NCBI RefSeq assembly: GCF_002854065.1
Contig: NZ_CP024147.1
Length of the DNA: 64,000 nucleotides
Reading direction: 5' to 3' (one strand)
Source of the DNA: Escherichia coli
GTDB taxonomy: Bacteria > Pseudomonadota > Gammaproteobacteria > Enterobacterales > Enterobacteriaceae
Below, one piece after another: positions 54,509-57,500 of this stretch; the first letter of the stretch is position 1, and each line of letters begins with the position of its first letter. The position numbers are program-made.

Positions 54509-57500
54509 TGAATGCGTCTGACAGCAAAACAGGTGACATGGCTGAAAGTTTGCCTGCATCTTGCCGGATTGTTGCCGTTTCTCTGGCTGGTCTGGGCGAT
54601 CAATCACGGTGGACTGGGTGCCGATCCGGTGAAAGATATTCAGCATTTTACCGGTCGCACTGCACTGAAATTTTTGCTGGCGACCTTGTTAATCACACCT
54701 CTGGCACGCTACGCAAAACAGCCGTTATTGATACGCACTCGCCGCCTGTTAGGCTTATGGTGCTTTGCCTGGGCGACACTGCATTTAACCAGTTACGCAT
54801 TGCTGGAGCTGGGCGTGAATAATCTGGCGTTATTAGGCAAGGAGTTAATTACCCGGCCTTATTTAACGTTAGGAATTATCAGCTGGGTTATTTTGCTTGC
54901 TTTAGCGTTTACTTCAACCCAGGCGATGCAGCGAAAACTCGGCAAGCACTGGCAACAGTTGCATAATTTCGTCTATCTTGTCGCGATCCTGGCCCCAATA
55001 CATTATCTGTGGTCGGTGAAGATTATTTCACCGCAGCCGCTCATCTACGCTGGGCTGGCTGTACTGCTTTTAGCCTTACGGTATAAGAAGTTGCGTTCCC
55101 TTTTTAACCGGTTACGCAAGCAGGTTCACAACAAATTATCTGTATAACTTCATATTGCCGACAAAGTACGCGTTATCCCTGCCGGATGTGGCGCGAGCGC
55201 CCTATCCGGCCTACGCAGATCACATCAGGTTATGTTTCGTTTGTCATCAACCTCAAATTATCAACATAATTCATTTTATTTCAATAAGATAGATAAGTAC
55301 ACCTGAGAAAACTATGCTCTCATCTCCTAAGAGTTGTTGCATTTTGTCATATGTTACAATATAACATTACACATCATATACAATGACTCTGGAGGAAACT
55401 GTTTTGGCGATTCGTCTTCACAAACTGGCTGTTGCTTTAGGTGTCTTTATTGTTAGCGTTCCTGCCTTTTCGCATGGTCATCACTCACACGGCAAACCCT
55501 TAACAGAGGTCGAACAAAAAGCTGCTAATGGTGTTTTTGATGATGCCAATGTACAAAACCGAACGCTCAGTGACTGGGATGGAGTCTGGCAATCCGTTTA
55601 TCCTTTACTGCAAAGTGGCAAACTTGACCCCGTCTTTCAGAAGAAAGCGGATGCAGATAAAACTAAAACATTTGCTGAAATTAAAGATTATTATCACAAA
55701 GGTTATGCAACAGATATCGAGATGATTGGCATTGAGGACGGCATTGTTGAATTCCATAGAAATAATGAAACAACATCCTGTAAATATGATTACGATGGAT
55801 ACAAAATACTCACCTATAAATCAGACAAGAAAGGCGTTCGTTACTTATTCGAATGTAAAGATCCTGAAAGCAAAGCCCCTAAATATATACAATTTAGCGA
55901 TCATATAATTGCACCACGAAAATCATCTCATTTTCACATTTTTATGGGTAATGATTCACAGCAATCTTTATTAAATGAAATGGAAAACTGGCCAACGTAT
56001 TATCCATATCAGTTGAGTAGCGAAGAAGTGGTCGAGGAAATGATGTCTCATTGAGTATTCTCATGATAACGCCTCGATGCCGCTTTAGTAAGTCATCATA
56101 ACTGCCTCTGGTCCATCCACAAACGCCACTGAACGCAAGCTAGCTACAGACACGCTCATCACTATGACGTGTCTGTATATTAATAAGCTAACCCGCATTG
56201 AGTTAACCAATAACGGATTCCATACACAATACGGCCAACAGAGAAAGATACCTGTGCTCACGCCATTGCTTATATTGGCTGGTTACAATGTGCACTATCA
56301 ATTTTTTAAATAACAAATTCTTAAAACCACATCTGTATAAGGAATTTTTAAGGTTCGTGGGATAGCTTGACTGTGAAAATTACAGGAGCTACAAAAATGA
56401 ACCGATTCTCAAAAACTCAAATTTATTTACATTGGATAACGCTGCTTTTCGTTGCAATAACCTATGCCGCGATGGAACTCCGTGGCTGGTTTCCTAAAGG
56501 TAGTAGTACTTATCTGCTGATGCGAGAAACACATTACAATGCGGGTATATTCGTTTGGGTGTTAATGTTTTCACGCCTGATTATAAAACACCGTTATAGT
56601 GATCCTTCTATTGTGCCACCGCCACCTGCCTGGCAAATGAAAGCGGCTTCGCTAATGCACATCATGCTTTATATAACCTTCCTTGCACTTCCTCTGCTGG
56701 GGATTGCTTTGATGGCTTACAGTGGAAAATCGTGGAGTTTCCTTGGTTTCAATGTGTCTCCCTTTGTTACCCCAAACAGCGAAATTAAAGCACTGATAAA
56801 AAATATTCACGAAACCTGGGCAAATATAGGCTACTTTTTAATCGCAGCTCACGCTGGCGCAGCACTCTTTCATCACTACATTCAGAAAGATAATACTCTG
56901 TTACGAATGATGCCTCGCCGCAAATAAGTCGATCCCCTGACAAGGAAATGTGAACCATGGACATCAACGCGTCATAAATGTTTACGCAAGTGCACAATGC
57001 ACCCTTTCCACTATCAACAAGGAGGAGCAGAAACTGTGTAAATCGTACAATGGTAAGACTTATCAAAAATACAGGTTAATTTTTGTATTTAAACCTTTTT
57101 TACTTGTTAGTATGATACAAAGGCTTTCAAAAAAGCTGGGAAATTCAACAACTCTTGGAAATTATGGACTTTGTCCCGCGGCTTTAATCTGACGGCCGCG
57201 TTACTTTTTTGACTCAATTATTGACCCCTTCTCTACGCAACTTCAGTTCCCACCACCAACTTTGCGGCAGTTTCATAGGATGAATGTCTAAAAGAATAAT
57301 GGTGAGCGATAAGAAAACGACTGAATAACTGCACATTTTCGCTCGAAAGCTTCCTGTCAGATCCATAGCGAATCAAGTGCTGAATGTCACAGTATCGAAC
57401 AGAAAACAGTGACGATCTACCCCTTCAAGAATATTCTACGATTGTTCTGTTTAGGAAAAGCAAGGCGGGAAGTCGGGAGATAAGTCATTGATAAAGTGGC

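Follow-up and report, generated by a model that had tools for sequence, protein, structure and literature searches.

The Zur operator of the zinT (yodA) promoter in Escherichia coli O157:H7

A palindromic element in front of zinT in E. coli O157:H7 is, with a probability of about 0.97, the Zur operator of the zinT (yodA) promoter. This operator is already known and well characterised, and its identification adds nothing new. Refinements are limited to its boundaries (55352-55371, within a footprint of ∼30 bp) and to two O157-lineage substitutions that flank the core at 55347-55348. The element had been pointed out in a first-pass annotation of the window, the whole stretch of 64,000 nucleotides analysed here (contig NZ_CP024147.1 of assembly GCF_002854065.1), as a Zur-box-like palindrome at 55351-55367.

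The window is from E. coli O157:H7 and is 100% identical to NZ_AP018488.1 over 301 bases around the palindrome. Of 5426 complete E. coli genomes, 5415 contain this 301-base region. The local genes are, in order, hiuH-msrP-msrQ-zinT-yodB, and a tRNA-Ser(CGA) gene, serU in K-12, lies on the minus strand at 57497-57586 between yodB and mtfA. The palindrome was confirmed exactly where it had been annotated. It is a 6-N5-6 inverted repeat with perfect 6 bp arms (ATGTTA and TAACAT) and a 5 bp spacer, and it lies within the 256 bp spacer between msrQ and zinT, 37 bp 5′ of the annotated zinT TTG start (55404). The elements of the operator and of the gene are as follows.

55351-55367, unstranded: palindrome ATGTTACAATATAACAT (ATGTTA-caata-TAACAT), the core of the Zur box, read directly
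55350-55368, unstranded: 19 bp Zur box in the classical register, TATGTTACAATATAACATT (consensus AATGTTATAWTATAACATT), the best position of a weight matrix built without zinT, 17/19 match
55352-55371, unstranded: 20 bp structure-based operator for two Zur dimers, TGTTACAATATAACATTACA, the sole exact match to TGWNAYRWTATAWYRTNWCA in the window
55391-55395, plus strand: Shine-Dalgarno sequence GGAGG, 8 nt before the TTG start, read directly
55404-56054, plus strand: zinT (yodA) coding sequence, the regulated gene, encoding a periplasmic zinc-binding protein, from the RefSeq annotation of the identical O157:H7 record (Pfam PF09223 ZinT, E = 8e-84)

An in-frame ATG is present in the O157:H7 window at 55383-55385, 21 nt upstream of the annotated TTG. 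It has no Shine-Dalgarno sequence of its own, and the substitutions that create it are absent in seven other aligned Escherichia sequences. A mechanical open reading frame call at 55383-56054 probably overextends zinT, because the TTG start and its GGAGG, a GAGG-type motif, are conserved across genera.

Bare palindromy is unremarkable in this DNA. The window has 23 perfect 6-N5-6 inverted repeats, compared with 15.6 expected under uniform composition, and 254 inverted repeats when spacers of 0-10 are allowed; with 23 equivalent palindromes present, palindromy was dropped as stand-alone evidence. These counts, together with the A + T content of the intergenic region (61%), count for a chance AT-rich palindrome in the -10 or spacer DNA of a promoter, with no role for a repressor. 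That reading is exceedingly improbable in view of how closely the site resembles validated Zur boxes, of published Zur binding to the exact sequence (PMC4219657) and of the retention of both arms across Enterobacterales where the flanks are unalignable.

The resemblance was measured with a symmetrised position weight matrix (PWM) derived from five experimentally validated Zur boxes, none of them from zinT, which avoids circularity. The training sites were those of E. coli K-12 znuA/C, ykgM and pliG and of Yersinia pestis ykgM and znuC, the latter two having been DNase I-footprinted (PMC2706843). Among all window positions on both strands, 55350-55368 has the top score, 25.5-25.9 bits, with the training sites at 22.1-26.6 bits and the second-best window site at 9.5. 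A PWM scan had been named as the check on the first-pass annotation, with a poor score relative to validated boxes as its refutation; the score falls inside the validated range, and the identification of a Zur box in front of zinT holds both by this first rank in the window and by the published control of the promoter by Zur. From the exact score distribution P is 1.7e-9 per position; the expectation is ∼1e-4 such sites in the window and ∼0.009 in a genome of 5.5 Mb. Even with the AT-rich intergenic composition, P is 1.3e-8 per position and 3e-6 over the entire 256 bp spacer, and these values count against a chance palindrome. The sequence match and its significance, as well as the gene identity and the conservation described below, are results of the present analysis.

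Measured against the 19 bp Zur consensus (PMC2706843), 55350-55368 has two mismatches. No site with three or fewer mismatches to the 23 bp Zur consensus GAAATGTTATANTATAACATTTC was found in the window; the zinT site has four, all at outer positions. The 20 bp operator contains RNNNYRNNRYNNYRNNNY at 55353-55370. Its match to TGWNAYRWTATAWYRTNWCA, a pattern published in PMC4219657, is circular and carries little independent weight, as the pattern was partly derived from zinT. With respect to the zinT start codon, the Zur box is 33-53 bp upstream, within the core promoter of this zinc-homeostasis gene. As to the interval 55351-55367, the core stands, and the bounds do not: the functional operator is a little longer and displaced rightwards, to 55352-55371. 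The first base of the annotated interval, A55351, is not conserved and is a G in Escherichia sp. MOD1, whereas TACA at 55368-55371, beyond that interval, is conserved save in E. albertii, where the T at 55368 is an A.

The literature is the source for the binding of Zur and its footprint, the degree of repression, the arrangement as a dimer of dimers and the zur phenotype of O157:H7. In K-12, Zur protects ∼30 bp of PzinT (Gilston et al., 2014; PMC4219657). The apparent Kd in zinT electrophoretic mobility shift assays (EMSA) is 0.053e-18 M^2, a very high affinity, and zinT is repressed 984-fold when wild type is compared with Δzur. Two Zur dimers bind cooperatively, each reading RNNNYxxxRNNNY (PMC4219657). 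The Cy5-zinT EMSA probe of that K-12 study is the same as the window sequence over 55349-55382, which includes the whole 20 bp operator. In O157:H7 itself, ZinT accumulates in a Δzur strain even with zinc present (PMC3053223). The zinc-dependent repression by Zur that had been proposed from the palindrome is thus borne out by published footprint, EMSA, fold-repression and mutant data.

Boxes of the Fur family are all AT-rich pseudo-palindromes, and this resemblance would also allow an operator that serves mainly another regulator, either Fur or some other factor acting on yodA. Expression of yodA is responsive to cadmium and to several global regulators, which counts for such a reading. It is nevertheless very improbable. 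The best alignment of the Fur consensus GATAATGATAATCATTATC in 55330-55390 has 8/19 mismatches, compared with 2/19 for the Zur consensus, and a Fur box was rejected on that count. Moreover, deletion of zur alone leads to the ∼984-fold derepression (PMC4219657).

The operator of zinT also appears to be part of its promoter. The promoter elements, whose exact hexamers and start site we infer, are placed as follows.

55337-55342, plus strand: candidate -35 hexamer TTGCAT, located in the block GAGTTGTTGCATTTT, which is invariant in eight Escherichia sequences
55360-55367, plus strand: candidate -10 hexamers in the right arm, TATAAC (55360-55365) and TAACAT (55362-55367), from the spacing to a conserved TTG and the published position of the box
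55375, plus strand: approximate zinT transcription start, within a few bases, from the published -23 to -4 placed on 55352-55371

TTGCAT and TATAAC are separated by 17 bp. Of 65 orthologous promoters, 32 have a TTG at 11-13 bp before the start of the box, an enrichment that sets a -35 hexamer at a distance of 17 bp from one of the two right-arm hexamers, TAACAT or TATAAC. Across the species surveyed, the right arm consistently serves as the -10 region too. A secondary statement places the zinT box at -23 to -4 relative to the transcription start (PMC5916954). Primary mapping of the zinT start site was not found in the literature searched, and the overlap with the likely -10 region, proposed in the first-pass annotation, draws on this one secondary statement and on the geometry of the hexamers. 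The overlap is supported, because every plausible -10 hexamer falls within the box. A consensus promoter scan of 55100-55500 detected no sigma-70 promoter over the box; the scan demands a T at position 6 of the -10 hexamer, and TATAAC is without that T. The scan calls were at 55241-55270 only on the plus strand, and at 55284-55257 and 55164-55135 on the minus strand.

A natural variant is found in E. coli 2015C-4498 (locus L092 of the survey), where a 5 bp deletion at the equivalent of ∼55337-55346 removes the TTGCAT -35-like hexamer. After the deletion, TTGTTT and TAACAT are 17 bp apart, as in most other genera, and the Zur box is intact.

Several other elements are found in the spacer upstream of the box. 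The plus-strand call at 55241-55270 is a promoter-like TTGTCA-18-CATAAT sequence ∼100 bp upstream of the Zur box, and corresponds to the zinT 'constitutive promoter' listed in a K-12 RNA polymerase gSELEX study (PMC3946193). An AT-rich block from its -10 onward (ATAATT.ATTTTAT.TCAATAAGATA, in the region 55241-55293) is kept even in E. albertii, the remaining spacer differing. If the 55241-55270 promoter is active, Zur would need to roadblock its transcripts. Just past msrQ, at 55181-55210, there is a REP-type palindromic element, GCCGGATG.GGCG....CGCC.TATCCGGC, with a second copy at 13839-13868. The REP-derived Rfam family naRNA4 has a sub-threshold match at 55146-55211 (33.7 bits, compared with a gathering score of 59.5). 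In E. coli HB-Coli0 the match upstream of zinT is split in two places, the first piece ending at ∼55323 (query base 174), which is suggestive of inserted or rearranged DNA immediately before the zinT promoter.

The gSELEX-listed sequence at 55241-55270 (PMC3946193) is relevant to a further reading of the palindrome, as a read-through transcript from an upstream promoter might fold the arms into an RNA hairpin acting as an attenuator or terminator. The probability of this is practically negligible. The predicted fold is weak (-3.6 kcal/mol, z = -0.94), with 32 of 200 shuffled sequences folding as well; the scan of 55100-55500 found neither a T-run nor a terminator call, and no Rfam family lies over the box. 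Compensatory changes in the stem were not seen, the arms being invariant in the eight Escherichia sequences. An intrinsic terminator or structured RNA was rejected for its fold no better than shuffled sequence, for the missing T-run and for the lack of an Rfam match.

Conservation within the genus sets the Zur operator apart from its surroundings. The msrQ-zinT spacer (55150-55450) is unusually polymorphic for E. coli: identity to the window over the 301 bp is no more than 90-95% in 2488 of 5415 genomes. An alignment was made of eight sequences, comprising O157, K-12, four divergent E. coli, a cryptic Escherichia clade and E. albertii. It displays two invariant blocks, GAGTTGTTGCATTTT and TGTTACAATATAACAT.ACA, with four to five variable bases between them, and the 20 bp operator block is invariant in all eight but for position 55368. 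Among 5426 complete E. coli genomes, 4725 contain 28 or more exact bases of 55349-55378, and the 20-mer is retained in all three low-ranking strains examined.

Conservation of the box extends across Enterobacterales. One genome per species was scanned, which gave 80 zinT loci, 78 of them usable after the exclusion of two truncated fragments. ZinT fragments with 99% identity to the protein of E. coli are encoded on short contigs (L035 and L076) in metagenome-assembled genomes that bear the labels 'Bacillota bacterium' and 'Bacteroides sp.'; contamination of the bins is the likely cause. A box of at least 15 bits is present within 300 bp upstream of zinT in 64 of the 78 Enterobacterales loci. 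Over all 78 the median best upstream score is 22.9 bits, compared with 5.1 for the control, the remaining ∼3.3 kb of each locus. Upstream regions are unalignable between genera apart from the box. Per-column information content is 1-2 bits in the box and 0-0.4 elsewhere, the in-box values being somewhat inflated by anchoring on the PWM hit.

Ten more loci belong to Proteus, Morganella and some Providencia. Here a box scoring 21-29 bits is situated ∼35 bp upstream of a gene for a paralogue of ribosomal protein L31 (Pfam Ribosomal_L31), which is followed by an L36-like open reading frame and then by zinT. There is an apparent rpmE2-rpmJ2-zinT operon under a single Zur operator in these bacteria. 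zinT is without a box of its own in loci L066, L067, L070, L074, L077, L080, L083, L061, L069 and L051 (∼990-1500 of each locus). A Zur box before zinT or before the apparent operon is found in 74 of the 78 loci in total. The sole boxless loci are four from Serratia sp. DD3, which carry no Zur box in the 300 bp before zinT or in the rest of the locus. These four (L057-L060) are on four contigs of one assembly and carry apparently identical zinT loci, with the same best upstream 27-mer and scores; they could represent repeated DNA, an artefact of assembly or a mobile copy.

The closest known system is the Zur operator of PzinT in E. coli K-12, which is the identical locus and element, with the gene order msrP-msrQ-zinT-yodB shared. 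The zinT Zur operator is said to have been predicted by Panina et al. in 2003. The O157:H7 sequence differs from K-12 by two adjacent substitutions just upstream of the core, at 55347-55348 (TC here, CT in K-12), and by two further substitutions downstream of it, at 55383 and 55385. The upstream pair creates a TTGTCA at 55344-55349; it is inside the ∼30 bp footprint and at the edge of the 23 bp box, in a flank that is variable among E. coli strains generally. That these changes in the O157:H7 lineage shift promoter strength or Zur affinity, and so give zinT a zinc set-point unlike that of K-12, is speculative and unlikely.

The operators of znuA/znuCB, ykgM-ykgO (L31p/L36p) and pliG share the core TGT.A...TATAACA with zinT, in a single register. 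They have similar PWM scores and are likewise close upstream of zinc-homeostasis genes. The arrangement of the arms differs. In ykgM the arms ATGTTA and TAACAT abut (TTATGTTA followed directly by TAACATAA), whereas in zinT they are 5 bp apart, and because of this the perfect dyad of zinT is in another register, ∼2.5 bp from the structure-based dyad. The latter is between 55361 and 55362, and the dyad of the palindrome is at 55359. The elements read by the two dimers correspond to 55353-55365 and 55358-55370 of the window, and the difference in arm spacing between zinT and ykgM is consistent with two overlapping dimer sites. Binding of Zur is far tighter at zinT and L31p than at znuC and pliG (PMC4219657). 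In Y. pestis the same 19 bp box is found at ykgM and znuA/znuCB, where it overlaps the promoter -10 (PMC2706843); the genes controlled differ from the present case. Yersinia species other than Y. pestis carry the box before zinT, and the retrieved loci lacked Y. pestis.

A mechanism can be proposed along the lines of the published model. When cytosolic zinc is sufficient, zinc-loaded Zur would occupy the AT-rich pseudo-palindrome of the zinT promoter, with two dimers predicted to bind cooperatively on opposite faces of the DNA within 55352-55371. TATAACAT, which forms the right half of the operator, would also be the -10 region, with the conserved TTGCAT -35-like hexamer just 5′ of it. Since the right half doubles in this way, Zur on the operator would shut out RNA polymerase and keep zinT silent. 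Under zinc starvation, Zur would lose its regulatory zinc and leave the DNA, and zinT would be transcribed to supply the ZnuABC importer.

E. coli has four canonical Zur sites, one of them the zinT operator, which is minor as a discovery. It is useful as a positive control, as a reader without tools named a real regulatory site with the right coordinates and the right regulator. PzinT already serves as a zinc-limitation reporter in Salmonella. A small addition from the survey, besides the double role of the right arm, concerns the Morganellaceae, where zinT shares its Zur box with paralogues of ribosomal proteins that are zinc-free.
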